Assembly (NCBI GenBank): GCA_958009085.1
Contig: OY253669.1
Coordinates: 1,240,001-1,304,000 of the forward strand
Length of the DNA stretch: 64,000 nucleotides
Source: Protoeuglena noctilucae
Taxonomy: Eukaryota
Reading direction: 5' to 3'
The translations under genes and the position numbers were made by a program. Below the pieces are notes generated by a model. It ran no database searches, was not told the origin of the DNA, and saw only the letters and a program-made list of their open reading frames with translations. Of this stretch, positions 5,413 through 49,400 are shown in pieces. Positions within the stretch are counted from its first letter, which is position 1. Each line of letters begins with the position of its first letter.

Positions 5413-5614
5413 AGAGTGGCGCAGCTCCACTCCACAGCGCAACAGCAGGGCTCTGGCGAGGGTATCTGCCGGAGTTTACCTTGAATCCCAGCGAAGAAAC
5501 GGAGGCACTCTTTTCTCTTCCAGTGTCAGAGGAGAGGCTGACGCAGACTGACTGAGTTTTAGGGCCACCGACGCACTCCACGGCTCCGAGCGGAGCTCGC
5601 AGCAGCTGGCTGCG

Positions 5615-8716: not shown

Positions 8717-8973
8717 GCACTGAGCTGCAAGGGCCTAGGCAGCGCCGCTTGGCAGACGCTCACGTCTACGGGGCTGTGTTGGACTGGCAGTTTCAAGCAT
8801 CGCCTTTGCGTGGACGGTACTGGTTCGAGCCTGTGGCTAGTGGAGAGGCTAGCTATCTCGTCTGCTACCCAGTGAAAGCAGGAAAATGCTCAGAGAAGGC
8901 GCGAAAAGGGAGGGGCTGTCGAGGAATTGTCACGGTATGGGAACAGAGGGGGCGTGGTACGCCGCGCGTGCTG

Positions 8974-10866
8974 TCAACCGCCTTCGAATAAGGTGTGCAT
9001 GCCGTGGTTGAACTTGGAGAAAGTGGCGGACACCAAAAGACCTGCGGCAGTGGGTGCGGTGACAAGACGGTTGTGTGCAACAAGTGGGCCGTGGCCTGCA
9101 TGGATAGAGGGGCCCCATCCCTGCCGCCCTCTTGCCTGAGTCAGCCAGATCTCGGACCCAGGCTGGCGCCTCGTCTCAGGTGCCCATCAGTTTGATCTCA
9201 AGGATCGCGTATTCTGAGCAAATACTGTCCCCAGGCACCGGCTTTTCCTGCACGGCAGGCACGGCGCATCACTCTGGTCACCGTCGCTGCCATGAGCAAG
9301 TGGGCGAGCGCGTGCAGGGCTGCGTGCATCTGCAGTGCTCGTCACACCTGAGGGTCGCGGTGCCACCGCCCCTGCTCCAGGCAGCTGGGCTGGCCACGAG
9401 GGCTCTCCAGGAACATGCACACGTGGGTGTCCATGGAGATGCGCACAGCCGCGTCGTAAGGAATCTGCACGCACCGAGGGCAGCGGGGTCGCACAACGCC
9501 ATCCCAGCGCGGGCGGCGCCGCAGGCCGCGAGCAAGGCAAGCAGCCCTTGCCTGAAACGCAGCGCGCATGTACTGGGTGCGCACGACGGGCGCCAGGCGC
9601 TGGCCGATGACGGCCCTCTGCACGTCCGCGAAGAGTTGCGCGAAGGGCGCAACCTCCCCGGGGCTCTTGCCCTTATTCGTCAGCGCCCGGGAAGCCTCCT
9701 CGACCGTCAGGGCGCCCGTCAGGAAGGGCACCACGCTTTGCTCCGGCAAGGCAAACCTGTCCTTCCTCCCCGAAGCCTCCTCCCCCGGCTGCTGTGCCTC
9801 GGACTTGCGCTCCACGTACACCACGGACGGCTCCCGCGGGCCGTACCACCGCAGCCGAATGGCGTCTGCCTTGGGGTGCATGTTCTTCTGGCGCCCGTGG
9901 TGCAGGTCCCTCTCCGCGTTGTCCAGGTAGGCCGAGTTGATGAGCTGAGAGTCCCCGGTGTAGTCCGACGGGTTGTAGCGGAAGAGCGGCAGGTGGCGGA
10001 GGATGGACAGCTTGACGGCCGACACGTCCTCCTGCCGCACCCAGAACTGCGAGAGGGCGAGGGACGCGCCGGGAGCCGTTGCCCGACACGTACGCGCATT
10101 GTCTGGGACCAGAGAACACATGACGGTGCACGTGACTGACCTTGGTGGTGGCGCGCACAAACTCTTGCGCGTCGTCCTCGTTCTTCTTGCCCGCCCCGTC
10201 CGTGCCTCGCAGGAGCGCGTACACCTCCGAGAGGTCCACGAATACCTCCGTCGCAGCGCCCTCCAGGGGCGTCGATTCGCGTTCCAATACCAGTATCTCA
10301 TGCGCAATGGCGTCCGCCTGTCCTCGTGCCGAGGCGGCCCAGGCAGGGTCGGCAAGCGCCCCGGAGACGGCCGCGTCCGCAACCCAGTGTCGCAGCTCGG
10401 AGCCACTGCGGAGCCAATGGGACGGGAGGTTGGCGAGGGGCCAGCTCGATTAGGTCGGGGGAAGGAGCGGGAGCGGGCCAACGTGCTTTACGCACCAATG
10501 CTGGAGGCGACCAACGCTTCGGTGCGCTGCCATCTCTCCCCCCGTGCACATGTGAGACGTCTCAAGCCGATTCACTGCGAGAGGCGGCCGGATAGGCTGG
10601 TTCGCGCGAGGGCACACGCATGCGAAAGGATGCGCGCTCCCTCGTCGCGACTCACCGTCCGCAGGGTCTTTACTGTCGAAGAACAGCAGAGACACGGAGT
10701 TTGCGTCACAAGACCCGCCGCCCAAGCCTTCCAACAGCTGCCTGCGGGCGCTACCGGGCATTACCAGACGAGCTCGCGTCGTGGCGACCTGCCGCAGCGA
10801 CGCGACGTCGAGCGCGACGAAGAATCGACGAGCGAGACGATCTATCCTAAACGCACGTCGTGGCAT
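8974..10866 (-). pseudogene. VTC4: Degenerate VTC4-like polyphosphate polymerase: reduced SPX remnant, internal TGA, no recognisable transmembrane tail
   Basis: VTC motifs 'QEFVRATTKFWV', 'DSQLINSAYLDN', 'AIRLRWYG', 'VYVERK', 'VRTQYMRAAFQIPYDAAVRISMDT' and 'AILEIKL..*DEAPAWVRDLADSG..FSKFNHG'. In-frame TGA at 9178..9176. The 5' exon structure is uncertain. Confidence 0.7.
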
Positions 10867-11861
10867 CGTCGCGAGCCCAAGTAACGACGCGCGCGGTTCG
10901 CTGGAACGCTGCCGCATGCGCAAGGTCGCCGCCCATTTCTCCCATCACCTGGGCCCCCACGGCCGGCCGTCCCCACGTGAGCCCCACAGGACCACCATGC
11001 ATCCCACTCCCATCGCGGCAATCGCGAGGCGCCGCAGCCACGAGCGGGCGCGGCCTTTGGTGGAAGCATCGGGCCATGGGACTCCTGGGCTGCTGTCCAT
11101 GATAGCAATCCCTCTAACGCAACCCTAGGGCAGTGCGGGTGAAATGTCCAAGCGTTGGTGGGCGCAAGGAGCTGTGCCATCCCTCTTAGATGCATTCTTA
11201 CACAAGTCGACGGGTAGATGCGCATATCCAGCCGGGGAAGACGCGCCAGTCGTCACGCCGAAGTCGCAGCAGTCGGTTTGCTTGGCGCGAGCAGATCGGC
11301 GTCCCGTCAGCCGCGGGATATCGGAGAGTCAACGTTTGGCTGGCCGGCGCAGCTCGCTTCGCCTAAACTCGCCTCTCTCGCCCCTCGCTGCTCAATGGTG
11401 AGATGACCGATGCGTCGGGTGCCGTTGCCGTCTCTCCACTCTCAACGCACGCGTCCCTGTCTGCGCGCGGGATGCAGCGCCCCCTCGCGCTCGAGCGCTG
11501 CGGCTGCAAAGCGGCATTGGCATCGTCGGTCAGAAAAAATGCGTTTAAGCTTCTTGCAGCCGAGAGGTGGCTGCGCTCGGGGCCTGAGCCGCCCGTAGGG
11601 GCTGGGATCCGCGAACGGCACCATGCCTGCGGGTGAGGGGCCCCGAACGAGCTCCAGGAGCCCAGCGCCAGACGGGGAGAGCACTGCTGGAAGTCTCCAC
11701 GATGCACACGCGTCCTCGGTGGATCGGAGGGCGTCGCGTCGTGCGCTCCCGCACGTTCAGTCGCAAGGGGCGCTCCAGGTGCGCGCTCCACGCTTTCGTC
11801 GCCGCTGGCAGGACGCGTTGCAGTTACAGTGTGACGCTACCGCCAGGCAGTCCCGCCGCAG

Positions 11862-14800
11862 ATGGAGCATCGTCGTAGCGAAGTGTTGACGCTGGAGGGC
11901 GAGGCATCTGTCGGGCCGTCCTACCGGCACGCCCCTCCGGTGCATTCCCCGAGGCTGCGGGGCCACTCGCAGGCGCACACTAGCGAAGCGCATGCAGCGG
12001 CCGACCACGGGGCGCGGGCGAAGGCCGCGAGCCCCTACCTGGCCTCCCCCGCGCATCCGCCCCCTGTGCGCTCGTCGCCCTCTCCGCACAAGTCTTCCTC
12101 GCGGATCCTTCGCTTGGAGACGACACCGTCGCCGGAACAAGCGCCCGTCGGGCCGGTCCTCTCCGCTTCGCAAAGCGCGGAGGCCCTGCACCGCCACGAG
12201 GAGGAACGCCGGTCCCCTCCGCCCTCCACGTCGCCGCCTTCCTCCCCCTCTCCCCACCTCGCGTTGGAGAAGGATGAGAAGGACTTGAGGGATCCCGGCG
12301 GCCGCGCGGAGGGGAACGGGGACGGCGCAGCGGGGCCACGGCGCACCATGTCGAGCCATGCCCGCCTCGACGGGGCGGCCTCCGCGCGGCCGAACGCCCG
12401 CGTGGTCGTCTCAGTCGCTTCCAAAGCAGACTCTGCAGCGAAGGAGCTCGGCAGCGAGGCATACAGCGGGGACGTGCGGCCAATTGCAGACATGACGCCG
12501 GAGGAGCTGGAGAGGGAACGGCTGCGACTCAAGGGAGCTTCGGGAGCGGACACGGCCCCTCTGCCACGGTGCGCCGCTTGAGGTCCACCGTCATCTCGGC
12601 TTGCAGGGCGTCTCTTGGCCCGTCGCTTGGCCCGTCGCGCCCGTGCCAACACCTCACCCTCGCTCTCCCCACGCAGGTGGAACAAGGCGCTGGGCCCCAG
12701 CTTCCGCATCTCCCGCGGGGGGACTCTGATGACTCTGCTGGCGAAGAACAAGGAGGAGGTGGAGCCCATGCTGCCCGTCGTAGAGGCCTTTGAGGCGGAC
12801 GCCTTGGATGAGCTGGGCGTGGGGAGCGGCCACAGCACGGCCGGGAGGGAGCACGAGGGCTACGGCGACGACGAGCGGAAAGCGGGGCCCGCAGACAATG
12901 AGGGCGAGGCAGTGAAGGTGAAGGGGAGCTACCCCGTCTTCGCGCTCCCGGACGCGGCCGCGGTGGCAGGGAGCGGGCCAGGGACGGCAGGGGTGCTGCC
13001 CCTGACGAGGTTCGGGTCGACGCCCCGGGGCCCGGCGATGCCCGCCAAGGCCTCGCGGCTGGCGGCGGTGACGCGCGCGGGGGCGGCTCCCGGTCCCCGC
13101 AACCACGTGTGGCCGGCGCCCGACTCCGACGACGCCCGGGGGTCCCTCCTGGCCGAGGGCGTGCCGTCGTCCAGCGTGGCGCGGGGCGCCGGCAGCGCGG
13201 TGACGGCCCCGGCGGAGCCGGCGACCAAGGTGCGCGACATGGTCAAGACGTCCGTGTGGAACGCGGACGCGGACTTCGTGGAGATGGTGCGGCAGCGGTC
13301 GTGGAAGGCGCGGGCGCAGGGCATCGCCAAGCGCATCGTGTCCAACCAGGACTTCGAATTCACCGTCATCGTCCTCATCTTCGCCAACTGCATCACGCTC
13401 TCCATGTACCGGCCCCTGGAGGGCGACAGCGCCCCTTTCAACAGGCGAGCGGCTGCGTGACGCACAATCCCGCGTCACTATTTGCAGATTTGGCGTCTCC
13501 CGCGGTCGCATGCCTCAGTGCCAAGCATGCCCCGCCCGCCCTCTGGGTCCCCCGCAGCCGCCTGGCGATGGCCGAGCTCGTCTTCAACGTGGCCTTCTCG
13601 GTCGAGGTCGTCTTGCGCTTCATCGCCGACGGCGGCATCCGCAACTACTTCCGCGAGGCCTGGAACGTGTTCGACTTCCTCATGGTGATGGCGGGGTACT
13701 CCTCCCTCCTCCCCGTGGGCAACAGCAACACGGGCGCGATCCGCGCGCTACGTGCGCTCCGCGCCCTGCGCCCCCTGCGCACCATCACGCGGTTCCAGAG
13801 CCTCCGCGTCATCGTGGTCGCCTTCCTCGAGTCGGTGCCCATGATCGGGCAGGTAACGATGCTCATGTTCTTCGTCATGGTCCTCTTCGGCATCTCGGCC
13901 CTCTCGCTCTTCTCCGGGGCCTTCCACTACGAGTGCTACGACCCCGTGACGGGCCAGCCCGAGACCTACCCCAACCCCATCCTTCCCGACGAGTTCGGCT
14001 GCGGGGGGTGGCGCACGTGCCCCCCGGCGTTCCCCGTGTGCCGCCACAGCAGCGCCAACCTGGCCATCAACGCCGCCGGCTTCGACAACCTCGCCACGTC
14101 CCTCCTCACCGTCTTCCAGATCATGACGCTCGGCGACGCATGCATCGTGATGTACAGGGTCATCGACAACACCTCCTGGGCATCCGCCCTCTGGTTCGTC
14201 GCCCTTATCCTCTTCATGACCCACCTCTCGCTCAACCTCTTCCTCGCCGTGCTCAAGCTCGAGTTCGGCCGGGCCCAGCGCGCCTTTGCCGAGGAACTCA
14301 AGGCGACGCGCAAGTCCACCAAGAAGACGACCTTCGCCAAGGCCATCAATTTCGTCCGCGCGGGGATGCACAACTTCGTGGACCGGCAGCGCGCCAAGGT
14401 GCGTGGCGCGGACTGGCACGTGCTGCGCGGCGCGACGTCGGGAGACCTGCTGCGTGTCGCGTGGCGCTGCCACCGTCGCCCGACCGCGTGGCCTGCGGAC
14501 GCAGTGACATATCTGCGTTTTTGCTCTTGCTCTGCAGAGCCTGGACCTCCTGGTGGACGCCAGCGAGGGGTCCGTGGCCTCGGCCATATCAGGGCTGCCT
14601 CCGAAGAAGCTGACGGAGGAGCAGCGCGTGGCCATCCGGCAAGCGGCGCTGGAGGAGCTCGTGAACGCGGAGCGGCGCGTGGTCGTGCGGGCCTGGCTGC
14701 GGCTGCGGCTGCGTCTCATGCGGCTTTCGGACAGCACGGCCTTCAACAACTTCTTCCTGTTCGTCATCCTCGTCAGCACCGTCTTCATGGCATCCGAGTA

Positions 14801-17800
14801 CTACGGCATGTCCGCGACCTACACGGCCGTGCTCAACGGTGAGTGGCATGCATAGCGGGGCCGAGGCGGCAGTGCGTTCGACACCTGTGCATTTAACTAC
14901 CCGCGCTCCGCTGGCGCCTCTCTGAGAGAAGCGCTCGGCCATGTCCGCCTGCTCTCTTACGCGATCCACCGCGCCCCCGCTCTCTGCCCGCAGTGGCCAA
15001 CTACGTGACCACCGCGCTCTTCTGTTTCGAGCTGGTCATCAAGATGGTCGGGTACACGTTCTGGGGCTACATGAGCGACGGCTTCAACGTCTTCGATCTC
15101 GGTATGGTCCTCCTGTCTCTCTTGGACATCTTCTTCCTGTCGGGAGGAGGACTGCAGGCGCTGAGGGCGCTGCGATCGCTGCGGGTGATTCGGTCCCTCC
15201 GCGTCCTCCGCATCTTCAAAATGTTCAAGTACCTGCAGTCCCTCAAAAAGATCGGCGACGTGATCATGCAGGCGCGTTCTCCCCACGCTGCCGCGGGGCT
15301 GGCGGCAATGGGGTACCACCTTCGCACCACCAAGACACGTGCACAGCTGTCGCGGCGGGACGCTTCAAGTGACGCGTTCCGTGTCCGCAGAGCTCCGGGT
15401 TCTTCTTCTCGGTCGCGGTGCTGATGATCCTGTTCATGCTGGTCTACACCATCATCGGGCTCCACACGCTTGGCGCCGTGATGCTGGACGACAGCTGGGC
15501 CACCAACAACTTCTCCTCCTTCGTCACAGCCCTGCGATCGACCTTCCAGGCGAGGATCTCAACCGGCTGAGCTCCCTTCCTTCGCCTTGCTGCTAGCCTA
15601 GCCATGCTTGCCCGTTGTGTGCCGTGAAGGGTCCCATGTTGGCGCGTTGGCGCGTGCAGCTACGGGCCCGCGCCCTAACCTCCCTCCTTGGCTCTCCTCC
15701 GCAGCTTTCCACGCTCTAGAACTGGCAGGTGCAGATGTTTGCGTACGTGCGGGCGTCCGGGTGGGGCACCTCGGCCTTCTTCATCACCTGGGTCATCCTC
15801 AGCAACATCATCCTGCAGCAGCTCTTCCTCGCCGTGATCATGGAGGCCTTCGAATCCAAATACGACACCGAGGTGAGACGAAGAGCTACGCGCGGAGAGA
15901 TTGAGCGGGAAACGCGGCACACGCATCGGTGGCATGACCGTGGCTGTCGCCACTTTCACAACACGCGCAGGTGACGAAGGAGATCAAGTTCCTGTTCAAG
16001 CGCACGGCCAAGGGGCGCAAGCAGGGGCCCAAGAACAAGACGCTGAGCGACCAGGACCGGCTGGGGTCCAAGGTGGGGGCGTCGGCGCTGATGGGCCCTC
16101 GAGAGGAGAGCGTGACGTCTTTCCGCCCAGGCGCGGACGGGCCCAGGGGAGGCGGCGCGACGAGGTTCGGGCCGTCCGCGACGGAGAGCGCCCGCATGGG
16201 CGACGCGGGGCTCCCGCTAGGCGCCCAGTTGGCACGCGACACGGCCTCTGGGACCGTGCCGGTGTTTGCCCTGCACAAGGACGACTCGGTGGGCGGTGGG
16301 CAGCCGGGCGCTGCTCTGACCGAGAAGGTCCCGGCGCGGGTCACGCGGTTTGCCCTCGCGGATGGGGCTGGGCCTGCCGTGGCCGTCCGCACCGTCCCGG
16401 CACCTGTCCTGGAGCGCCCGAGCGTGGCGTTCGCAGACGCACCGGCCGAGGACGGCACCGAGCCGGGACCGCTCTGGGCGACACCCGCGCGGCCCAAGAG
16501 CGCCGCGGCGACGCCCCAGCGGATGCATGTGGCGGATGGTGCTGCCCCGGCATCCCCAGCGATGTTTGTCGGGGATGAGCCGGCGACGGTCGGGCGCGAG
16601 GCCGCGTCCCGGCAACGGCCGCAGGAGTTCCGGGGCTGGGTCGCCGATGCCGAGCCCGACGGTGCGGGTCGTGGCGCGCATAGCCCGTTGCCAGGGCCGA
16701 CGGCCCCTGGCCCAGTGGCTGAGTCTCTGGGGTCGGCTCACCTGTCGGGGCGCGTCGCGCGGGCGATACCCGGCTCTCGGGTGGAGTTCTCGGGACGGAG
16801 GACGTCGTCCTCATCTAAGGAGTTGAGGAGCGTGCGCGGGTCCGAGGAGGCCGTGGCACAAGCGAGGGTGGCTGGCGGCCGCCTCGCCCGCACGACGTCG
16901 AGTTCCTTAGCGGAGCGGATCGGGCGCGGCCTTTTTCCGCCGAGCGCGGGCCCATGGGGGCGGGTGGCACCCACGCTCTTCATCCCGGAGTGCACGCCCT
17001 TGGACGTGCCGTCCACGCCCTCCCCGACCGGCAGCCGGCGGCTGCGGGGCTCCGTCGACGCGGCATCGATGCCCGGCACGCCCCACCGCGGATCCTCGGT
17101 GTCAGGGCGCTCCCTGTCCCGCCGCGCGTCAGACCGAGGCCTGCGGCCCCAGCGGTCGCTCTACGAGAGCCCTGTGGGGCGCCCGGTGAGTCGGTTCCGG
17201 ACGAGCGAATCCCTGCACGAGGCGTCGCCGGGAGCGACCGCGCGGCTGCCGTCCTGGCGGGAGGACCGCGCTGGGTCAGCTGTCGGGGAAGCGGCATTTG
17301 GGGCCGAGGGCAAGGGGCTGGCGCACGCGGACGGTGGCGCGAGGGACGTGCGGCCGGCCCCAACCGCGCGGGTCGATGCGGAGGGTCTGGCGGCGTCGGG
17401 ATGGGACCTGAGCGAGCTGGCGGGCGTGCGACGCAACACGGTGGTCCCCGCTGGCCCCGTCATGGAGGACTGGTTCCAGCGTCCCGGCAAGGAGTCGAGC
17501 GCGGTGGGTAGGGATGACTCCGGCGGCTTGGAAACGGGCAAGCGGGTGAAGGCGGACCGGGCGGCGCGGGAGTCGGGGTACAGCGACACGGCTCCCAGCG
17601 TGAGCGAGGTCTCCCGGACGTCCGGGTCGCGGTTCTCGTTCGCGGGGGACTTCGGCGAACTCACGGAGATACAGGATGAGGTGAGCGCGGGGTCGCAGCG
17701 CCGCAGCGTGGCCAGCATGACGCTGCCGTTGCCAGCGTGCGCGTTGACTAGCGCTGTTGATTGACTATGCCCCGTCCTCGTGCGCAGTTGGCGGATCTCG

Positions 17801-20800
17801 GGAGGGACGAGTGGGGCTCGCTGCACAGCGGGAGCACGCAGACGACGGTGACGCAGGGATCGATCCCTCAGACGGCGGTGCGGCGCAAGAAGGGCGGCAA
17901 GCGCACGCCGCCGCACCTCAAATTCCAGGGCAAGGCTTTCGGATTCCTGGACACCTAGAGCCCCTTTCGCCGCACCTGCTACCGCATCGCCACCAACAAA
18001 CGCTTCGAGGTTTTCATGCTCGTTGTCATCGCAAGTGCGAGCCGCGCCTGTGCCATACGCCGCCATCTGCAGCGCCGCGTGCCATGATTGCCATCCGATG
18101 CTGTGACCCTCTGCTGGACGCTCTGTCGCTCCCCGCGCGCAGTCAACTGCGGGATGATGATGTACGACCGCCCCACGATCGTCAAGGGATCAACGTCCTA
18201 CGCGGTGCTGTACTGGAGCGACGTGTGCTTCACCGTCCTGTTCGGCATCGAGATGCTCATCAAAATGACAGCCTTCACGGCCAAGGAGTACATCCGGCAC
18301 ACGCCCAGCGCGGTGGACACGGGCATCGTGGCCACCAGCGTCCTCACCCTCGCTCTGGAGAGCTACCTCCACCAGATCAGCGTCATCAAGGGGCTGCGGG
18401 TGCTGCGGGCGGTCAAGCCGCTCCGGGCAATCACGCGCAGCGCGGGGATGCAGCTCGTCCTGCGCTCCATCCTCCTGGTGAGCCGCGCAGCGGTACCTGT
18501 AATGCCGCGGCCCACCGTTGGCGCCCCGGTGCCGCGCCGGCTGTGCATGGGTCCTGCTTACGACAACTGCCCCTTGGTTGAACCTCCCGCAGTCTATGGT
18601 GGCCATGGCCAACGTGTCAGTGATCCTGCTGTTGTTCTTCATCATCTTTGGCATCCTGGGCGTCCAACTCTTCGGCGGAAAGTTCTACTCTTGCAACGAC
18701 CCGACCGTCGACGGCAGGACGCAGTGCGTGGGCACGTTTGTCGACCCTAGCTCAGGTGCGGGATGCTGGGCGCGGCGTGCAGTCGTCGAGAACACTGGTG
18801 CGCTGCAGTTGCCCCGGGGTGCGTTGGCCGGGGTCACTAGGACCCTAGCCTCGTCCTGATGCTGCTCTATGTCCCATGGTGCATGCCCCGTCCTGCCCCG
18901 TCCCTTTCCTTTGCCATTTACACACACCTGGTGCTCTCACACCTCACACGTCACGCTCGCGCGCCTCGCAGGGGCCGTGACCCAGCGCGTTTGGAGCAAC
19001 AGCTTCTTCAACTTCGACAATCTCGGTCACGCGCTCGTCATCCTCTTCGTTTTTGCCAACCAGGACAGCTTCACCGACCTCCTGAGCCTGGCCATGTCGA
19101 CGCGCCAGCCCGACCAGCAGCCGGTGCCCGGGGCGAACAACTGGGCCGTGCTCTACTTCATCGCCTTCATCTACATCGTCGGGTTCTGCATGATGAACAT
19201 GTATGTTGGGTGAGGGACGCGCGGGGCGGGGCACACAACTTGGCAAGTCGTGCCCCTCGCTCACAGCCGCCGGCGGGGCGCGAGGGCGTCTCGACCCCTG
19301 TCCCACCCGGTCTGGGCGCCGCAGCGGGGTGTTCTTCCATTTCACTGTGTGAAATTCCCCTTTCTCGCCTCTTCTCTCCCACAGAGTGGTGTTCTTCCAG
19401 TTCACACGCATCAAGATGCTCAGCCAGACGGGCACGGCCTTTTTCACCAAGGAGCAGTCCCAGTGGGTGGAGCTAAACAAGGTCCTGGCACGGTTGAAAC
19501 CCGAGGTGAGGCCTTGGGTGGTGGGTGTGAGCCCCGGGCATGCGACATGAGTGGGGTGGTGCTGGCACAACTGAGAAAGGAGGTGAGCATCAGGCTTGTG
19601 GCATGGAAGGGGTTTGCCGGCATGGTGTGGCTGTGTCGGGACCTCCGCGTTCCGACGCCGGCGTGCGTCCCTCGGCCTGCAGGGCAAGCCGCAGGGCCAG
19701 TCGCGGTTCAGTCGCATGTGCGCGCGCATCATCATGTCGCCCAAGTTCGAGGCCTTCATCATGGGCGTGATCGTCGCCAACGTGTTTGTCATGGCCCTCA
19801 CCTGGTACAGCGAGCCGCCCGCCATCGTGATGCTCCAGACCATCTCCAACTACGTCTTCACCGCCATCTTCCTCGTCGAGGTCGTCCTGAGGGTGAGCCA
19901 GGCTAGCTTTTGCATCAGCGCAGGGGGGGCCCACGGCTGGTGGCAGCCCGGCGCCATGCCAGGACAGTCTGGCCGTCTGCGCAGGGAGCGGTGCCAGGCT
20001 AGCTTGTGTGTCAGCACAGGGTGCCATGCCAGGCAATGGCGGGTGCCACCACCGGATGCCACTATATCGCGTAACCCCTTGCGCCACTGTTCCCTCTGCA
20101 GGCCTCTGCGTGGACGTGGCGCGTCTACTGGGTCTCCAGCTGGCACCGCTTCGACTTCTTCATCTCGGTCGTGTCGCTGGTGGACGTCGTGGTGTCCCTG
20201 GCCGCCTCCGCCGTCAACATCGGCTTCATCCGCATCCTGCGCGTGCTGCGCCTGGCGCGCATGCTGCGATTGATCAAGCGCGTCCGGGGCCTCAACGACC
20301 TCTTCACGACTCTCTACATCTCCCTGCCTGCCCTCTGGAACGTCGGCGCCCTCATCTTCCTCCTCTTCTTTGTCTACGCCTACATCGGGGTCCAGATCTT
20401 CGGTCACCTGGCGCAGTCGACCGGGGGGGCCATCAACTACCACGCGTCGTTCGCCGACTTCGGCAAGGCCATCCTGACGCTCTTCCGCGCCTCCTGCAAG
20501 GACGACTGGTCGCCCGTGATGCAGGGCATGATGGAGAAGCCCCCGGCGTGCTCGTACGCCGCCGGCACGTGCGGGACCCTCTTCACGCTCCCGTACATGC
20601 TCTCCTTCATGATCCTCGTCGGCATCGTCATGATCAACCTCTTCCCGACCGTCATCATCGAGAACTTCGAGACGACGATGCAGCAGGAGGAGTGGACGCT
20701 GCAGCCCGCCACCCTCGACACCTTCGTGGTCCTATGGGCCAGGTACGACGACGGGTCGGGGACCATCCTGCCGCGGCAGTTCGAGGAGCTCCTCGTGGAG

Positions 20801-21765
20801 ATCGGGCCTCCGCTCGGGCTGAAGAAGAACGCCTCGCCCAAGGAGATCGTGCAGGTGAGAGACTGTTGACGGATGGCGAGGGACGGCAAGGGTAAAGTGG
20901 AGTCGGCAAATAAGGGGCTGTTCATGACAAGAGGTGGCTAGGGCGCAGCACAAGCATGGAGCTTATGCAGGCAATGCCAGTAGGGAGGCTCGCTGCGTGC
21001 TGCGCGTGTGCGTGTGGTCCCTCGCATCGCTCTCTGACGCGCGCCCTGCCCATGGATGCGCCCCCGCAGTTCGTGACGGAAATCGACATTCCGCTGACCA
21101 CGGACGGCCGCGTGAGCTTCGGCGCTGCGTTGTACGAATTGGTCCGTCGCGTGTGCGAGGTGGATCTCCCAGAGGGCGAGGTGCTGCGGCAGGTGGAGCG
21201 GCTGTACAAGCGGCTCCTCAAGGGCGTGGACATGTCCAAGGAGGACCACAACAACTTCTCGGCCTTTGTCATTGTCAAGCGGGTGCAGAAGCGGTGGCGC
21301 CACCTGTGCCGCGCACACAACCTCGTCGATCGGCACGCCGTCAGGTCCCTGCGCGCCGGTGTGCCCTCCGCGCAGCTCGTCGTGGTGAGGCCCGCGCGGG
21401 TGCTAGGGTTACAGCTAGGGGATAGCGACACGTCCCTGAGCCACGCTGGGCCAGCGCGTCACGCCAGTTTTCCAGTGCATCGTGGTTGCAATCGTGACGC
21501 AACCCCCGTGCCCGCACCCCCGCAGGCTCCGCCGCGGACTCTCAAGCAAGAGTTCGCCAAGGCGTCCACGAAGGTGCCGGGGCTCGCGTTCAAACTCGAC
21601 CGCGCCAGCCTGAAGGCCTTTTTGTCGTCCGAGCTGGGCCGCGAGCTCATGGCCAGGGACGGCGGCGCTATTGCGGGGCTCGCGCTCCCGTGGACGCGGA
21701 CCGGGTCGCAGCGCCACTCCATGCGGCGCGGCCGGACCCAGGAGGAAGAGGATCAGAAGCGATGA
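11862..21765 (+). CDS. Four-domain voltage-gated cation channel alpha subunit (Cav-like); about 18 exons, two in-frame TAG codons
   Basis: Four 6-TM repeats, each with an S4 segment (RALRALRALRPLR; RALRSLRVIRSLRVLR; KGLRVLRAVKPLR; RILRVLRLARMLR) and a pore loop. C-terminal EF-hand-like 'WARYDDGSGTI' and IQ-like 'VKRVQKRWR'. TGA stop at 21763-21765. Confidence 0.93.
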
Positions 21766-22044
21766 CCAGGGCCCAGCAGAGGGCCCTCGAGGCAGCGGTG
21801 ACCGTGTGCGGAGCGTGCCGCATCCCTTTGTGCAGTTTTGCGACACCTGTCTTGTCCGTTTCCTCCATTTTGCGTGACAGCGTCCAACACCGCGTCTTGC
21901 GTTAGTTTCCAGGCGCACGCTGCAGCATGCCGTGTCGCACTCATGCCTTGGACGCCGGACGCCCCATGTCAGCCTCCGTTGGCGCTCGCCGGTGCTGCCA
22001 CAATTCGCGTTCCCGCCTTGGTCATGGCTTTAGCGCCTCCGCTA

Positions 22045-22065
22045 CCCCCCCCCCCCCCCCCCCCT
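22045..22065 (+). repeat. Poly-C homopolymer between convergent genes
   Basis: A run of about 20 C is directly visible. Confidence 0.9.
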
Positions 22066-22273
22066 TTCGTAGGCTCCAGTCGCATGCCCAAACGAGTGCC
22101 ATGAGCGGTGCGCTCTTCGCCGCGTACATCGCGTATACTGAATGGCTAGTTTGCCTCACAACTTGCTTGAAAGTCTACGAGCTCAGAGAGAATCGAGCAG
22201 GGCTACATCAGCCCCCAGGGGGCAGCTGGGCGACGCCTTGATCCTTGCGACCCCGTCGCCGGCCTGCGTGTTT

Positions 22274-22659
22274 CTACTTCGTGATTAGGTAATACAGGTT
22301 ATAGGCGATGCTCACAGACCCGAGCCCCGCGATGTAGAGCCAGTAGACGCGGTTGACGGTGTCGTCGCTGTCCGTGGCGTTGTAGACCCACGCGTGCCTC
22401 CGGTTCTGCGGCGCGCAGCGGCTGGGATCCTTGGAAAAAATACGGGAGAAAGCGCGCCAAGACGCCGCGCGCGCCCGGGGCCGGGAAACGGGACCGGTCG
22501 CACGGTCGCACGGTCGCAAGGCGTCACCTTCGCCTCGGCCAGGTGCCGCTGCTCCGTGATGATCTTCGGCGAGGAGAGAGTCCCAGTCTGGGTTCCCGTC
22601 GACGCCTGGGTGGCCATGCCCCGGCGCGCTGCCTGGGCGAGCTGCCGAAGCGACCGCAT
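22274..22659 (-). CDS. Small mitochondrial single-TM protein, cytochrome c oxidase subunit VIIa-like; 2 exons
   Basis: Presequence-like 'MRSLRQLAQAARRGMAT', then 'KIITEQRHLAEAK|NRRHAW...YWLYIAGLGSVSIAYNLYYLITK'. Size and layout resemble plant COX7a-like proteins. TAG stop. Confidence 0.5.
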
Positions 22660-36544: not shown

Positions 36545-37012
36545 ACCTAGGCCTGTATGTGTGTTTAAGGATCTATCTTTCATGCTGCAACATAGGCTGG
36601 CCCTCTCAACCCCATCGGGGAGAACATGCGTTGGCTTGCGAGCATGTCAAGTGCTGGCGTGAACCGTCAGTTTGCCGCCGCTTGGTCACGCCCCGCGAGA
36701 AGCAAAGAGACGTTCAATTCTGTGCTGTGTATAGCGTTCATCGTCGATCGCTATCGGAAGAGGGGGCTTTTGCGGCTCCATCCGTTGAGGTGACCCTTGT
36801 GTGCAAAGGGCGCCCCCGAAGAACGCGCCCCCCGTCGGTCTCGATGCTTTGCTCAACTCGTTATTTGATTTGCAATTGCTAGAGCCTGGTCCTGCCCCTT
36901 TAACGTGGCGACAGGGCCCAAGCTTCGTCGCGTTGTTACCATGTCGATTTCTTAACTCGCGCTCGAATTGTGCTCAGTTACCTCTCGCCCCGTACTCCCA
37001 GATCGATCCAAA

Positions 37013-40000: not shown

Positions 40001-40183
40001 GTCAATGACGAGAACGTCGACACGATCTCGCCTGGGGTGGGCAGCGCGGGGCGCGCCCGGTGGAGCAAGCGGGTGGGCGCGGCCGTCAAGGCGGCGGTGG
40101 GTGGGCCCGTGCGGTCGGTGCTGGGCGCGGCCAACGGCGTGGCACGGACCGTGTCCGGCCGCGGGTCGTTTGCGACCGAGTGA
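37013..40183 (+). CDS. Hypothetical Ser/Pro/Ala-rich disordered protein with internal repeats and a possible N-myristoylation start (MGNCA); about 6 exons
   Basis: Consistent GT-AG exon chain ending in TGA at 40181-40183. The first exon needs a 1-nt frameshift near 37079 to join MGNCA to 'PGTAHQLKRAVSERLQ'. No family recognised. Confidence 0.55.
39058..39270 (+). repeat. Four copies of a ~57-60 nt coding repeat, QSMKAWPVDxSG(T/M)T
   Basis: SMKAWPVDH / QSMKAWPVDV / QSMKAWPVDV / SVQAWPVDA in ORF 38822..39865. Confidence 0.85.
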
Positions 40184-40400
40184 TGAAGTGATGTGATCTG
40201 CGACCATCTCTGTTCGAATTGAAAGCTGCGCTTACATATATGCCTGAGCCGGGCTACATGGCCCATCACGCACCACAGGGTGCGTGAGCACCACAGCGTC
40301 ACACACGCGTCATGTCGTGCGGCATCTCTAGCAACCTCTAGATGCTTCTGCCCAAGGAATCTTTCGCTGCTATCCGATGGCTCGGACGCCTGTCTGGTGT

Positions 40401-43400
40401 CTACTGGGCGCCGGTGAAGGAGAGGCGGCCCCGGCTGTCGACCAGAGCCAACCGGTGCTTGCCCTGATAGGGCGCGCCAACCACAGAGACCTGCCGGACC
40501 TCCCGCATCGGCAGAGCCACGCACCCGGCCGTCGGGATGACCACCTTGGTCGCCACCTGCATGTCCTCGTCGCCCGCGGGGCGCTCTGCGTGGAACGGGG
40601 CACACGCGTGCATGACCATCACAGTGCCATGCAGAGCCTCCATGCAGAGCCAGGCTACAAGCACGCCACAATCTCAGCACCAAGACACAAACAAAGACAC
40701 AAACATCCTGTTTACATTTGACTACCTCTTCCATTCTCTCTTTCTCTCTCTTACCGGCTGCCTCGACCTCCTTGGCAGGGACCGTGAGATCTTTGGCGTC
40801 AATCAGCCGCAGCACGCTGCGGTGGCCCGAGGTGAAGCACGCCAGGAGCGGGGCCTCCGCCCCGGGGACGTTGAGCACGCCGGACCCGACCGTGACCGTC
40901 TGGAGGATGCGGCCAGAGTCCAGGGACCACGAGGCCACCTGCAGGGAAAGGGCGATGTGAACGGTGGGTGGTGACGGCGAGGGTGGTGTACACGCAGATG
41001 TGCGACTTATGACCGTGGATGTGTATCATAGATATTCCACAGAGACATGGAACGTGCTGCATTGGTGCAGCCATGTGTCGCGACGACTGCGATTGAGATT
41101 GCGTGGTCAGCTACCCCGTCCATGTGGCTACCAAAAACCACTCGCCTTGCCCTCCCTGTCGTCGAAGGAGATGCAGACGCCGAGGCTCTCCATGACCGCG
41201 AGCCCCGCGACCTCCGAGGAGTGCAGCGACACGGTGAACTGACGCTCGCCGTTGGGGCCCCAGCTGCTGATGGCGCCCTGGTAGGTGTAGGACAGCAGGC
41301 GACCCGTCGACTGCGGGAGAGAGAAGGTGGCAGCGGAAGGGTTTGAGGCTTTGGGTGCTGATGCACGTACCGCTACCTTCAAGGCCCGCGGCCCATTCGT
41401 CGTAGCCAGTGTCTCACCAGCGCGATGCAGTTTTTGACGCGTGAGCGATGCGCCTCGACCACTCTCCCCCCGCCTGCGACACAAGCACGGCATGTCTTTT
41501 GCACTTTGTGACACACACGCATGGAGCGTAGTCATAGTTATCCACGCCCCCTTGCGCCTGACCTGACTGGGCGACGGGGCGGAAGTAGATCTGGCCCGTC
41601 TTGTCCCAGGTAACGACGTTCTCGCCCGCGCAGATGAGCCCCAGAGGCTCGCCGCTGTGGAGAGCATCCATGGACCGTGGGTCCCAAAGGTTCGTACCTG
41701 CATGGCAATGCCCAGACCGTACACAGGGTGAGTAGCAACGAGTGAAGGCGTGCACAGAATGTGTGCTTCGCAGTTGCTTCTCCGTCTTTGCTATCCCTCG
41801 CAGGCATGAGACACTCTCTTGTAGGGCAAGTTGAAAAGCCAATGTGCCGTTGTCGCGTCACGCACCCTGGTCGAGGTCCCACAGGATGACGCTCTTGTCC
41901 CGGCTGATCGTGGCGCACTTGGCGCCGTCGCCGACCGCCACCGCCGCCAGCACCACGCCCTGGTGGCCAACCAATGCCTTGCTCTCTCTCCCGGCGTCCC
42001 ATTCGTGTACCGTGAGGCTCCCGGCCGTGTCCCAGACGAGCACGCCCCTCTTGCCTGCGATCGGAAATTGGATAAGTCAATGTAAGGAATGGCCAAGGCC
42101 ATGCAGTGCGGCCAGGCTGACACTACTCCTAAGAGGGCTCAGGTGGCATGTTGCAGAGTGCCGGGCCACCCACCCAACCCAGATGCACCAACCACACCCT
42201 CCCTATCCCCCCCAGCCCCTCGCCTGGCAGGATGAGGCAGCCGGCCACGGACCACTTGCACTCGCGGATGACAGGCTCCTTCTCCAGGTCTTCCAGCAGA
42301 GCTGCCTGCTTGCCGCCCCACGCCACGACAGCGGTGCCCTCGGCGGAGACTTGCAGGCCCGTCACAGCGGACTGCGATCGATGGATGGAAGCGAGACAGT
42401 TGAATGTGTGTAACAAGCATTGACAACCCCATTTAGAAGCTCCCAAGAACGCCTAACCCAATGCCGGGCAATGCAGACGACTCACCGCCAGCTGCACCGT
42501 CGCTGCGCAGGTGCCCGGGCTGCCGACCATCTGCCATGCGCGGACGGTGCCATCCCACGACGCAGAAACGACCAGGGGCAGCCCATCCGCGGATTTGGCA
42601 ACCGCACACGTCTCGATCGCGGCCCTGCGCAGGTTGTCAGAAAAGAGGTAGTGTCAGTGTTGAAGTCATCAGTCTCAGCCTCAGCGATAACATAACATCG
42701 GCATGCCTCCAGGTACAAGCGCCCGCCACCACCCGCACTCACGTGTGCCCATTCGCGACGCCGATGCGCTTGCGTCGGTCCACGTCCCACAGCTCGATCT
42801 GCGGGGACCCCGCGGGCCCGCCCCACGCCGCCAGCGCGACCTTCCCGTTGGGCAGCGTGACCTCAGTGACCCCCGCCACCTTCCCACCCAGCATGGGCGC
42901 GTCTGGCTCCCCAGTCGCCTCGTCCGCCTCTGCCACCACGCCCACGTCCCACACCACAATGGCCTCCTCACTCCACGAGACCAGGCGGTCCTGCCCCACG
43001 CACTCGGCCCGAAGCACGTCAGAGGCGTGCTCGTCCAGCTCCGTCTCCACCACTGCGAGGGTGTGCGCCACGCGGACGGAGCTGTTTGTGAGAGGCATGA
43101 GCGTGATTGTTGCAGATGTTTTGTTGCAGGGTTGCAATGCTTGTTGCAGCGGCACTCTGACATGCGCTGTGAATGCCTGTCGAGGGCCTGAAACGGGTGG
43201 TGTTGGAGAGCAACACCAACGCAGGCGGGTGTGCTCACCGGGCCCGTTGTCCGGGACGTCAATGATCTTGACGACGTTGTCGAGGGTGCTGATCAGGCGC
43301 GTCGTGGAGCGCTCGGCGTTCCGCGTCACGGACAGGTGCAGGCGATTGGCATGGCCCCTGTGCATCCAAGTGTGGATGACCGCATCACTCACGTCCGCCA

Positions 43401-46400
43401 TCCTACGGATCTGCGGGAAGGGACATGCGGAGCTGTCTCGCGCATGCACCTGGCTTGTAACAAAGGCGTCGAAGCCAGTCCCGCAGGACAAGTGTTTTGG
43501 GCAACACATGGAGCAGAGACAGAGCCCGGTTCTGCCGCGCTAATCATCTCAATGCGCCGCTCGCCTGCATCCACGCCTCCGGCCCGGTGTCTGGCCCCTG
43601 CCGCGGGACCTCCACGATGCACACGTCATTGTGGCCGGGCAAGAAGGCGCTCTTCCACGTCGTCTGCTTCGTCTTGGGCTCGCGGTTGTACAGCCAGTAG
43701 GCCAGGTAGCCCGGCTCCAGCTTGTGCAGGATGGTGCCCGTGGCAATGTCGATCAGCACCGCGTTCTTGCTGCCCCACCTGCGCGCCGAGCAAAGCAAGG
43801 CAGCGTCGCACAGAGGTGAGATGCGATCCTAGCTACCCTTAGCAATCACAGGTCCAGGCATCGTCATCGCAAGCGCTGTGAAAGCCGGCCCTGTCGCCGA
43901 GGGTGCATTTGTGGTCTAATAAGTCAACCAGCATCCCCCACTCACCCCGACACGAACGCCCTGGTGCAGTCCTCGCTGACGCAGAGCAGATCGTGCTCCG
44001 GCGACCCGCACTGGGTCTTCCACACGAGCCCGGGGCTGGAGTCGAGGCGAGAGCCCCACTCCACGTTTCTCATGAAATCGTCGCCTTGCTCCAGGAACCC
44101 CACGTCCCACAGGAGGCAGTGGGCGTTGGCCACGGCAATGACGTGCCACCTGTTCTTGAACTTGAAGAAGATGGCCTGGTCGACCTTCCCGCTCGTGCCC
44201 ATGAGAGACACCAGGGGGCTTTTTTCCACGTTGTCCAGAGGCCGCTGCAGGGGCACGCGAGAGCGAGCGATGCGTCAGCAGGTCAGAAGAGCGGAATAAG
44301 GACTGCTTCATCGCTGGGCAATGGTGTCGCTTCATGCGACTCAGCAACCGCTGCGTCCGGCTTGGTTCACCGTCTTGATACCCTCTCATGTCTTGCCACA
44401 TCGCCATGGCTGCTCACATGCATGCAACCCAGCGACATTAACACCCTCACCTTCTCTTCCTTGGCTTTCTGCCGCTCTTTCTCTGCCTTCTCCACCGCCT
44501 CTTTCCGCTTCTCCGGGTCAGCTTCGTAAGGCATCCGGCCCTCGTCGGACAACCGCCAGATGTTGACGCAGCCCAGCGCGCCGTCGGGCCCGTACGCCAT
44601 GGCCATGCCGCCACCATCGATCAGAGAAACAAAGTTCACTGCAGGGGAGTGGTTGGCATAGTCACGCATGGATGCAACGACGTGACAGTTACTGCGATGA
44701 GACGGCTGAGGTGGAAGCGAGGTAGCAATGTCCATTAGGAGCAAGGCTGGCACGACATGACGGTGCGTGTGGGGTCGCCCCCGGTGCAGTGCCCCACCCG
44801 CTCCACGCGGCACCCACCCGAGGCCTCGTTGGCGAGCTTGCGGCCCACGGCTGTCCCGAACTCCATCGTCAAATCCCACACGATGACCACCCCGCGCTCA
44901 TTCTCCCAGGTCAGCGCCCGCCGGTTGCCGTCCATCATGTGGCAACCAATCACTTGGTGGTGCATGGCGTGGCCCTTCAGGATCATCGCGCGATCGGGCT
45001 CCTTGCGCCACTTCCACAGGTGGGGCTCCGCGTCCTTGTTGCTCCACAGGAAAATGGCGTCGTCGCAGGGCGTCACGTGGCACTCCTTCGCCGCGTTGCC
45101 CGGCCGCTGCCACGACGCCATCGTCTCGCCCGTGGCCACCTCCCACACCTGCGGAAGCACCAATGCGGGCCGAGACTCACACTACCTGGGCCCACAATGT
45201 CAGGACTGATCAATCAGGGCTCACACCCCCAGCCCCTCGCACCTTGATCCATCGGTCTTCGCCCCACGTGACGAGCATCAGCGCTCCCTGGGGCGTCTTG
45301 AAGTGCGTGGCGCCAACCACGGGTCCCGAGTGCGCGCGGAGCGTGCTCGCCGCCATCCCGCTAACCAAGTCCCACACTGCGGGCGCGTGTGCAGCATCAA
45401 AGCGTCAGGCATAGAAGCGCCCAGCGCGGGTACTCTGCCCATCTCGCACCCCTAGCAGGGCCTGCATTGGCACCCCTGGCCTGCATTGGCACCGCCCAGT
45501 CACTGCGCCCTCACCGATCACGGTCCCCTGCGCCCCCCAGGACACCAGTCGCTGCTCTGCCTCGAGGACCTTGCAACCGACGACGGCGCCCGTGTGCCCC
45601 TGGAGCTTGAAATACATGCGACCGAAGGCCTGGGACCTCGGGACGGCCGCAACGCCCGGCACTTGCGTGGACAGGTCACACACAGCTGCCGCGGGGGCGT
45701 GGAGTGGCGACGCCTGCGAGAGAGATGGGAGCAATGTATGTCAGGTGATGGCGCCTGACCGTGATCCTTACAGCGCTGTGGCAGGCGCGCGTATGCCAGA
45801 GCGCGGCCCATTCCTACATGCCGGCAAGCACCACGCACCTCGGGCAGGGCGACGAGGGTGGGAACCAGGAGATCCGGGCTGGCTTCGACGGCCTGGCCCA
45901 CCAGGCCCAGGGATCGGATGACGAGGGAGATGGTGCGGCACAGGGACTGGGCTGCCACTGACCCTGCTTTGCGTGCGGGCGGGTGGCGCGCAGCAGCTCC
46001 GAAAGCCTGCGGGCGTTACAGGGGCGGGCAATGTGAGCGTCGCGGCCATGCACATGCAGCGGCACCGGGGTTGCAAGTGGGTCGTGATATGATGAGAATG
46101 TCGCAAGCAGCCCATACCTGGCCGAGTGTTCGCGTGCCATCTGTAGGTCGAACACCGTCTGCAGGATGGGGATGGACACGACCAGAGCGGTGACGTCCGA
46201 CAGGGTCTGCTCGTTGCGATCGTCGCCCATGGCATTGATGATGGCGGCGGCGTGCGTCAAAGAGTGCTCTGCCACATACTCGGACATAGTGAGCGTCGGC
46301 AGAGGGTCCGCACGAGCCTCTGCGACCAGACGAGGTGAGACTCGCTCTTGGCTGCAGTGGCATAGCAACGTGGGCGACAGCTGCGCCATTCACCGCTGCC

Positions 46401-49400
46401 CTGGTTGCGGGTACATGTGTCCCGCCAGCCACGCACCCGCAATGCACTAGGCCAGGATGACGCGGTGGCCGATCGCAGGGTCCGCGAACCAGTCTGCCGC
46501 CGCCTCTCGGTCCGTCAGCCAGTCTGACACGCTCTTGTGGAACACTTTGGCGTACAGACGGTCCCTGGGGCCCTCCAGCTTGATGATGGTCTCCAGGCTC
46601 CCCAGGATGGCCAGCATGTTGCCCACGTCCGTGTCGCACATGCGGGCGAGCTGCGGGGGACGGGAGGACCAACAGCCATGGTCGTCTGGGTTCCAGCAGG
46701 GGTCTCGAGGCGCGACACGCAACAGTTGATGTGAGCACTGTCCCACAACAGTACGACGAGCACAGGCTCGCCGCAATCATGAGTATCGTGACTGCATGGG
46801 CCCACTTGGGTGAATAGCATAGGCTCACCTCCGTGACTAGCATGGGCTCCTGGGCGGCCATCATGGCTGGGAAGACCTTCTCCTTAAGCAGCAGCATGGC
46901 CCCATGCGATGAGTTCCTCACCCACCCAGACATGACCTGCAGGCGTGGGACAGCAACGCAGGCGATGGGTGCAGGGACCGATGGAACGGACCGGGCCTGA
47001 GCCAGCTGCCTTGCGTATACAGCGACTCAGTCCAGCCGCCTTGTACAGGATGAGCCAGTCTCAGTTAAGCCGCCCTGCTAACATTGAGTCAGTTTATGTC
47101 TGTACAGAACCCCGGTCACCCTGTCATAGGCGTCCTCCAGGGACTGCGGCAGCTCCACGGCGATGTCCTCGACCGCCGCGCCCTCCTCGAGCGATGACAG
47201 GAACTCTGCAATGCGCAAGGGACGACCCCGAAGTCACCTCGCCAGTGACCCCATCAGAGCCCCTCTGCTGATGAATGAGACCCGCTGGTTGCAATACATG
47301 GACAGACCTGGTTGTGACACATAAACAGCTCCCCTCGCTTCCCCAAGCAGTCCTCGCGGCTCCTCACCCGTGTCGTCCAGCACGGCCGTCGCGTAGGTGT
47401 AGGACCCCCGTGCGTTGCGCATGACAGCCGCAACAGCCGCGTCGAGCGCGGTCGGCGGCACCTCCTTCTTCAAATGGTGTCGCACGAAGGCCCTCAGGTC
47501 CTGCACGTTCTCCGGGCGGTCCGGGTCCAGGTCGTAGGTGTGGTAGGCCGCCTTGACCCGGTCCACCACCTCGGGGTACGGCCGGCTGGTGACCACCATG
47601 CGGACGTGGGGCGGGAGGCGCCGGAAGGACGACGTAATGAGCTGCAGGAGGCGGTTGCGGTCGGCCGTCTTGGCCGCCTCGTCGAGAGCGTCGATGAGGA
47701 AGACCACGGGGTGGTCCGAGGGCAGACCGGCGTTGATGGGGCCGGCCATGAGCTCCTCGAACAGGTCCTTCACTGAGAGCGTGTCCCAGTGCCCCGCGTC
47801 CTCCATGATCTCCTGCAAGTTGCGTAGGAGCTCCGAGGCCACCGCGGGCTCCCTCTCGGCCAGCTGGTACGCCTGCGGGAGGTGGGGCGGTGGGGAGGTG
47901 GGGCGGTGGGGCGAGGCGGTGGAGGGGCCGGGTGGGGCCGGGAGGACTGGGCAGGTGGGCAGTGGAAGTGCTGGTGGCGACGATGAGCGACAAACAAGCA
48001 GGCGAGGAAGTGCAACGAGAGTCCTGTACGCAACTAGCAAGCAAGGCGAGCGCCGTCAATTACTCTCACCAGTGACGCGATCATGTGTTTCGGGCTGGAC
48101 ATGCGCGTCGAGTCGTGTCGCGTGAAGTGGGCCGCGATGACCAGCTCCTTGCGCTCCTGGCAGAGCTTGGCCGAGAAGACCGTCTTGCCCATGCCGGGTC
48201 CCGCCGTGAAGAGGAACACCTGCGAGGGGGGCGTAGCGACAACCTAGCCGCACTCGTCGCACAGTGCGTGCAGACGCATCGCCAAAGGCACACCCAGCAG
48301 GGCAGGTTACTGCAGAGACAGTGAACAATACCTTTTCCTTCGACTGCGTCTTGGCTGCCTTGAACCAGTCGTCCACTTCCTTGACCAGCCAGTCACGGGT
48401 GCCATTCAGCAGGGCTCGCAGCCCGGCCTTGATCGCCGACCGTGGCATGGCTGGCTTCAGGATGGCGCGCACCTCGCTGAGCTCCTGCAGGTGTGAAGTA
48501 AAAAGGAGTGAGTCCACAGGAGCGTCGCAAGGGGCATGCACGTCGCGCATGGCAGGGACACCGGGACGCTGAGAGATTGACATGCGTGCTTACCATGCGG
48601 TGCACGAGGCTGATGACGTCCAGCGCCACCGAGCCCATGAAGACCTGCAGGCACCTCTCCATCGACAGAGGGACGCCGAGCCCCTGCGAAGGTGGGAGGC
48701 ATCGGGCGGTCTCCCTTTGCTCTCGGTTACGCTGACGTCGCATGGCAGTCGGGGTGATGCTGGAGAATTGCAGCGCGCATCCCAGCCCTCGCCTGCTTCT
48801 TGGCGTTCCGGACGGCCTCGTTCCAGAAGAGCAAGAGCTCCGCGCCCTCGACCACCCCGTCGTTCACGCAGTAAATGGCCGGCAGCACCACCAGGTCCAC
48901 GAAGAGCTCCTCTCCCGTCTTGGCAAAGTGGATGCCGGCACCAACCAACGCGTCCTCCATCCTGTGCCCCGCCTGGCTGATGATGCGCCCCACCTCGCCG
49001 CCCGCCATCGCCAGGGACTTGCGGAAGGTCGACATGCTGACTGCAGGAGCAATGGCCGAGAGCCTTGTCCGGCACTTGCACATCCACCCAAGGCAGCGGC
49101 AGGCTCGGGCCCCACACGCACGAACTGTAATACGCGCGAGGTTTGACCCCCCGCCGTCCGCGACGCACCTGAGGCCTTGGATCCGAAGACGCTAACCCAC
49201 CACCGCTTCATGTCGATGGGCAGGTCGTCTGGGAGCTCCGCCATTTTAGACTGCTCGGCGAAGTCACGGATCCCCGCCAGCACCCTGCAAGCATGTCGAC
49301 AGCATCAGTCAAACAGCCACGGAGCCACCATGCCACCCTGTTAGCGCTCCATCGGCACTGCTGCTGTGCGCCAGGCATCCCCCCAGATCAGGGTACCCTG

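Follow-up and report, generated by a model that had tools for sequence, protein, structure and literature searches.

We analysed a 64,000-nucleotide (nt) stretch of contig OY253669.1 from Protoeuglena noctilucae, referred to here as the window, and identified four stop codons lying in frame within three genes: a TGA in a gene with a VTC domain, two TAG codons in a gene for a four-domain voltage-gated cation channel and a TAG in a gene with a NACHT domain. Comparison with independent data confirmed that the four in-frame stops are genuine genomic features inside exons of otherwise intact genes. We tentatively favour the explanation, which we place a little short of an even chance, that a small share of the UAG and UGA codons of this marine eukaryote is decoded as sense while both codons also terminate translation. 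The window has a GC content of about 63-70% (approximately 67%) and its genes are split by short introns; it is therefore eukaryotic nuclear DNA, with introns of the GT/GC-AG type. An earlier reading of the same DNA made without database searches (the sequence-only reading) had placed the four stops at the positions confirmed here and had labelled the two minus-strand codons by their highest base (46449 and 9178). Each of the stops lies inside an exon. The genes and codons concerned are listed below.

8974 to about 11050, minus strand: VTC-domain (polyphosphate-polymerase-like) gene of 8 exons, 5' limit approximate (Pfam VTC, E 4e-31)
9176-9178, minus strand: in-frame TGA of the VTC gene, in exon 9135-9246
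about 12729-21765, plus strand: gene for a four-domain voltage-gated cation channel, modelled by us with 16 exons (2278 codons; Pfam Ion_trans in four blocks)
15717-15719, plus strand: in-frame TAG of the channel gene, in exon 15705-15872, domain II pore loop
17956-17958, plus strand: in-frame TAG of the channel gene, in exon 17788-18034, just before S1 of domain III
40401-50984, minus strand: MLKL_N/RPW8-like, NACHT and WD40 gene of the NLR-like STAND type (Pfam MLKL_N, NPHP3_N/NACHT and WD40-type matches)
46447-46449, minus strand: in-frame TAG of the NACHT gene, in exon 46437-46650

Four sequencing runs were compared with the window over positions 2500-22400, a span that includes three of the four stop sites. 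A 37.5-kb contig of run X4, which belongs to a separate study, matched 2500-19436, again covering three of the four stops, with 0 differing letters, and no differing letter was reported in any of the four runs. Six runs, including some from a study other than the metagenome, contained every sampled 31-mer of 12900-21800. Identical sequence was found in contigs from three studies, comprising both DNA and RNA, and in independent records of open reading frames (ORFs); contigs of up to 606 kb carry these genes. Base-calling or assembly error, which the sequence-only reading had offered as a mundane explanation and which is the least probable of all those we weighed, is excluded by this agreement as the source of the stops. 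RNA contigs within the same span showed the VTC and channel genes to be transcribed, with good cover of the VTC mRNA; the NACHT gene lies outside it. The sole difference reported in 20 kb was an extra C after 22044 in one contig of run X4, in the stretch that separates the end of the channel gene from that of a small minus-strand gene.

Seven introns of the VTC gene, with GT...AG or GC...AG ends on the minus strand, were supported by RNA contigs of two metatranscriptome runs. The exon that carries the TGA was bridged on both sides by RNA contigs of runs X7 and X10 (joints 9040/9135 and 9246/9347). After splicing, the TGA stands in frame in the mRNA, 41 nt upstream of the final exon junction. 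The frame then runs a further 35 codons, over a GC-AG intron and through DSGLL and the conserved motif FSKFNHG, until it reaches the terminal TGA (8974-8976). Two spliced, transcript-derived ORFs, P0151 (387 residues) and P0184 (421 residues), terminate exactly at the internal TGA (...LEIKLMGT). Because ORFs on transcripts end at this codon and RNA contigs retain it, the mature VTC mRNA carries UGA, and the suggestion that U-to-C editing restores the codon finds no support at 9176. Public ORF records for the gene already stop at the internal TGA.

When the spliced VTC protein was aligned by MAFFT to 31 homologues, the TGA fell beside short gaps, in a loop, opposite Gly in 22 homologues, Val in 5, Ala in 2, Asp in 1 and Glu in 1, with one of the Gly rows (P0156) being a badly aligned fragment. 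Conservation of the 35 residues past the stop was equal to or greater than that of the rest of the protein, and both WV..L..SGL and FSKF.HG were kept. Selenocysteine at this UGA was not indicated: nothing in the window attained the gathering score of any Rfam family, so no selenocysteine insertion sequence (SECIS) element was found, and the homologues show Gly, Val, Ala, Asp or Glu. The protein has neither an SPX domain nor a C-terminal membrane domain, unlike VTC4 homologues of approximately 730 residues, and its N-terminus is an unrelated region of approximately 150 residues. The nearest VTC homologues were green-algal, at 45-49% identity, and the nearest full-length homologue of the channel reached only 38%. 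Judged by these low values, the organism has no close relative in the protein libraries searched. No relatives were found in metagenome contigs by a protein scan with P0001 or a DNA scan with a 32-base stretch adjoining the TGA, and a protein atlas search yielded the VTC family alone, with no informative relatives.

The channel gene model contained the two TAGs as its only internal stops, had no frameshift and ended in TGA, with an uncertain start codon. Its exons were mapped by tblastn against the homologue P0002, such that exons defined by high-scoring segment pairs (HSPs) were separated by intron-sized gaps only, and identity to P0002 was 43-51% in exons before TAG 15717 and 45-64% in those after it. 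Residues opposite the stops were read from HSPs obtained by tblastn of 39 homologues (P0002-P0040) against the window. TAG 15717 lies 12 nt into its exon at the selectivity-filter position of domain II (T-L-*-N-W), opposite Glu in 12 of 13 HSPs and Asp in the other, within the motif T-x-E-x-W and without gaps in most HSPs. Alignment to two-pore channels in the PDB also placed this codon in the domain II pore loop. The exon concerned, which encodes the domain II pore and S6, had its best solved-structure match in domain II of TPC2 and TPC1 (E 3e-8). Pore motifs of the other channel domains were unusual too, with D in place of E and no W in domain I.

TAG 17956 falls within the segment FGFLDT*SPFRR, in an exon with a CAG acceptor and a GTGCGA donor. 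It aligned ungapped with the pre-S1 segment of solved Cav/Nav structures, and the opposing residues were mixed (Asp 4, Thr 4, Glu 2 and Ser 2 in 12 HSPs from 11 homologues). Judged by its length, a 1530-nt contig of run X10 starting at 17186 should cross this codon. No transcript-derived ORFs were found over the channel TAGs, where only the genomic ORF P0183 matched. A joint of very high depth from 15815 to 18597 looked foreign and was set aside. The linker between domains II and III (15971-17680, plus strand) is one open exon of approximately 570 codons with no homologue detected beyond its own record, and unbroken RNA contigs were present at 16432-16870 and 16603-17678. On the opposite strand, 12929-20925 held long ORFs antisense to the channel that were repeatedly closed by TAG and that the gene finder called as false genes; they illustrate how little the length of an ORF says when GC content is this high.

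The NACHT gene model comprised about 30 exons and about 2000 codons, with a terminal TAG at 40401-40403 and intact Walker A and B motifs (GPGMGKT and DALDEA). Its in-frame TAG lies three codons (10 nt) before the donor GTGCGT of intron 46320-46436, in an exon whose acceptor is at 46651. The codon sits in a winged-helix-like segment after the NACHT domain, and a weak match to Pfam HTH_TANC1 (E 0.0057) runs up to it. No homologues of this exon were found, and its PDB matches were chance hits to RapA (E about 0.1). In the encoded protein a four-helix domain of the MLKL_N/RPW8 type occurs together with a NACHT NTPase, a winged helix like that of TANC1 and numerous WD40 repeats, an NLR-like architecture with a putative membrane-disrupting head of plant or animal type.

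Frameshifts, splice-site loss and downstream decay, the hallmarks of pseudogenes, were not found in the channel, the VTC gene or the NACHT model, with the proviso that models from our gene finder might conceal a frameshift. The 15 introns modelled for the channel and the 29 for the NACHT gene, 44 in total, each had a GT or GC donor and a CAG acceptor. GC-AG introns were unusually common, accounting for 2 of the 14 introns with RNA support, 10 of the 44 modelled in the channel and NACHT genes and 25 of 115 in all models (e.g. 9042-9135 and 9465-9551 on the minus strand; 13445-13518, 15272-15390 and 15550-15704 on the plus strand). When the stop penalty was lowered, no further in-frame stops appeared in credible sense-strand genes over approximately 11,000 modelled codons; the extra stops reported were the true end of an acyltransferase gene and antisense artefacts. 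Two candidates in that acyltransferase gene, TGA 4762 and TAG 5152, were rejected as internal stops, both being inside modelled introns (4761-4851 and 5146-5226, plus strand), each of which holds one stop and leaves its flanking exons in the same genomic frame.

Gene ends in 14 models were TGA in 11, TAG in two (22274 and 40401) and TAA in one (NDUFB7), in agreement with the sequence-only reading as to the predominance of TGA and the two TAG ends, although it had counted two TAA ends where we find one. That reading also observed that each internal stop is preceded by C, which is correct and unremarkable: C is the third base of 46% of codons, and the pattern has a chance of about 4% on that basis. 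Third positions overall were 90% G or C. From the codon usage of the window, nonsense mutation would be expected to yield approximately 69% TAG, 17-20% TGA and 11-14% TAA. The observed TAG:TGA:TAA ratio of 3:1:0 fits this mutational expectation, and therefore no TAG-specific mechanism is needed to account for it. The codons following the internal stops all differ (AAC, AGC, TGC and GAC). The 90 nt after each stop folded no better than other windows of the same mRNAs (z-scores for the four stops of 0.24, 1.93, 0.90 and -0.45, relative to windows of the same genes), and neither a stable structure nor a known motif that might signal readthrough was found just after the stops, Rfam giving no match in the window.

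The remaining annotated features derive from Pfam scans of stop-free ORFs and from our own gene models, produced with a home-made gene finder for which 17 curated introns, followed by the program's own predictions, served as training data. Even after tuning, this program fuses neighbouring genes and calls false antisense genes, and a false intron could mask a frameshift.

about 2250-3120, plus strand: TenA gene (Pfam scans and own models)
about 4130-5412, plus strand: lysophospholipid-type acyltransferase gene (Pfam and own models)
ending at 8716, plus strand: GH13 alpha-amylase-family gene (Pfam and own models; RNA-supported)
22274-22617, minus strand: small gene of two exons and 74 codons, with a single predicted membrane helix, a TAG end, no Pfam match and high RNA contig depth
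between 23.7 and 40.2 kb: large genes without a Pfam match (own models)
52939-53550, minus strand: NDUFB7 gene, TAA end
from about 54.7 kb, plus strand: PH_FAN-BEACH gene (Pfam and own models)
60322-62673, minus strand: TPR gene (Pfam and own models)

The RNA-supported GH13 gene, at approximately 890 codons, contained zero internal stops. No tRNA genes were present in the 64-kb window, and Pfam scans of the window detected no eRF1.

The most serious competitor to sense decoding is a standard genetic code with very recent nonsense alleles that affect dispensable genes in a single lineage (clonal, haploid or homozygous) and are still transcribed and not yet decayed, an explanation that we regard as quite possible yet clearly below an even chance. 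The 3:1:0 distribution accords with it, and so do the alignments, since Glu opposite TAG 15717 and Gly opposite the TGA would each be a single step from a stop (GAG>TAG and GGA>TGA). These columns point to putative GAG and GGA ancestors altered by G>T at the first codon position, contrary to the earlier proposal that all four stops arose from CAG or CGA by C>T. Under plain mutation the chance of a TAG arising from GAG is 0.15-0.28 and that of a TGA arising from GGA 0.06-0.14. The channel carries two stops, as expected of an already dead gene, and the affected families often vary in presence or integrity. A premature stop close to the last exon junction escapes junction-dependent mRNA decay, and the TGA, 41 nt before that junction, is so placed. 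The lack of reported variation over 20 kb in four runs further suggests a single clone. Nevertheless, this explanation must accommodate four nonsense changes in 3 of about 14 adjacent genes with no detected frameshift or splice-site loss. By our own estimate, a set of four lesions that are all nonsense has a chance of at most about 6% if frameshifts are at least as frequent. The sequences past the stops are also free of decay, and no sign of a G>T burst was seen among 240 strongly conserved channel and VTC columns, with 0 G>T among 24 single-step deviations where approximately 1-2 would be expected, a comparison of little power.

Other explanations fared less well. Alternative splicing could in principle remove the stops, for example by using the AG of TAG 15717 as a 3' splice site and deleting five codons in frame; an exon start at 15720 does keep the frame, and the gene finder chose it when stops were heavily penalised. 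We nonetheless hold this to be very unlikely. The acceptor formed by TAG 15717 scored 0.0 bits, whereas the CAG at 15702-15704 scored 8.3 bits and the 17 curated acceptors ranged over 4.5-11.8 bits; all 44 of the acceptors modelled were CAG. The five codons that would be deleted encode the pore filter, which is ungapped relative to homologues, the TGA exon is present in RNA contigs and no usable splice sites lie beside TAG 17956 or TAG 46447. RNA editing, whether U-to-C or similar, that restores sense codons in mRNA deserves slightly less credence still: spliced RNA contigs of two runs crossed the TGA exon without a differing letter, the transcript ORFs stop at the TGA and homologues imply G, not C, at the first codon base, although assembled contigs drop rare variants and a minority of edited molecules would be missed. 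A clean reassignment of TAG (and TAA) to Gln with TGA as sole stop, as in some ulvophyte green algae, is no more probable than editing. TGA does end 11 of 14 models, but it is itself in frame in the VTC gene, TAG ends two models and TAA ends NDUFB7. Moreover, only 3 TAG occur in approximately 11,000 codons, compared with 348 CAG in 9,422 codons, and Gln appears in no homologue at either aligned TAG column. The sequence-only reading had rightly argued against a clean TAG reassignment from the gene ends; its reference to TAR=Gln codes, on the other hand, fits neither the Glu column at TAG 15717 nor the Gly column at the TGA.

Dual stop and sense use, also raised by the sequence-only reading, is a live explanation. 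The stops lie in exons, are identical in independent DNA, persist in spliced mRNA (shown for the TGA) and are followed by conserved sequence, which together support sense decoding. In-frame stops were found at alignable positions of conserved, intact genes, at four sites in three genes, with three of the sites aligned. Stop codons were the only lesions detected, in 3 of about 14 neighbouring genes; nonsense alleles occur in 1-2% of genes of wild haploid strains, and the proportion here is far above that. If stop codons are translated in this organism, ribosomes would read through in-frame UAG and UGA, perhaps by means of suppressor tRNAs or an altered release factor, and the three genes would yield full-length products. 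The inserted residue may be Glu for UAG and Gly for UGA, as suggested by aligned homologues at very few sites. A more specific version, in which UAG is occasionally Glu and UGA Gly through suppressor tRNAs one anticodon base from tRNA-Glu(CUC) and tRNA-Gly(UCC), with both codons still acting as terminators, seems unlikely to us.

Several observations weigh against sense decoding. The window holds neither a tRNA gene nor eRF1, in which a variant code would show its defining molecular features, and only four sites are available. All three affected genes belong to dispensable classes (one is NLR-like, one encodes an ion channel and one is a paralogue of VTC that lacks SPX and membrane domains), and housekeeping-type genes (GH13, acyltransferase, TenA, NDUFB7 and BEACH) are free of in-frame stops. 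Plain mutation predicts the 3:1:0 ratio, and each of the two well-aligned sites has the appearance of one G>T change, in GAG and GGA respectively. TGA ends 11 and TAG 2 of the 14 models, no outstanding RNA structure lies downstream of the stops and a frameshift could be disguised as an intron in our models. UGA=Gly is not known from eukaryotic nuclei, and UAG=Glu is rare. As a rough estimate, recoding and plain mutation explain the aligned columns about equally well.

Were sense decoding of these stops to hold, it would mean that an ambiguous stop/sense code had arisen independently once more, here in a GC-rich lineage for which the closest homologues of the VTC gene are green-algal. The very low usage of in-frame stops may then correspond to an early stage of codon capture, which theories of code evolution need and which is rarely observed. 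UGA=Gly would be new for a eukaryotic nucleus, and standard annotation would truncate or mis-splice perhaps a fifth of genes. Should the stops prove to be knock-out alleles instead, the result would be an ordinary one, yet it would still carry the caution that GC-rich codon usage alone mimics a TAG bias.

A search of the literature on in-frame stops or ambiguous codes in algae found no report fitting a GC-rich alga, and the patterns seen here were compared with several known systems. Unitary pseudogenes and segregating nonsense alleles resemble our data in their single-base premature stops, dispensable families and mutation-like proportions; they differ in that our genes show no frameshifts, splice-site loss or decay, three of about 14 neighbours are affected and transcription persists. 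In-frame stops are abundant in Condylostoma, karyorelict ciliates and Blastocrithidia, whereas only about 4 per 11,000 codons occur here. In the codes of those organisms each of the three stops can be read as sense, and context decides whether it terminates (PMC4967479, PMC12153298, bioRxiv 10.1101/2022.04.12.488043). UAR=Glu in Blastocrithidia matches the Glu column at TAG 15717. The ulvophyte orders Dasycladales, Cladophorales and Trentepohliales share with our case a nuclear stop-codon change in an algal lineage, although in those orders TAA and TAG were both cleanly reassigned to Gln (PMC2984419). In our window, by contrast, genes still terminate at TAG and TAA, an in-frame TGA occurs as well and Gln is not among the aligned residues.

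A precedent for sense decoding comes from Amoebophrya sp. ex Karlodinium veneficum (Kv), in which about half of the gene models are reported to contain in-frame stops of all kinds at low frequency, with normal termination alongside; essential genes are affected too, suppressor tRNAs were found and the inferred residues are Gln and Trp (PMC12005148). Our window differs in having in-frame stops in 3 of about 14 genes over 64 kb, with no TAA case, in a GC-rich genome with GT/GC-AG introns, and the aligned residues are Glu and Gly rather than Gln and Trp. The two cases are alike in their sparse in-frame stops of more than one kind in intact, transcribed genes, where the same codons still terminate, and the arguments run in parallel as well, in that independent data sets agree, the genes are transcribed and pseudogenes are implausible (PMC12005148).

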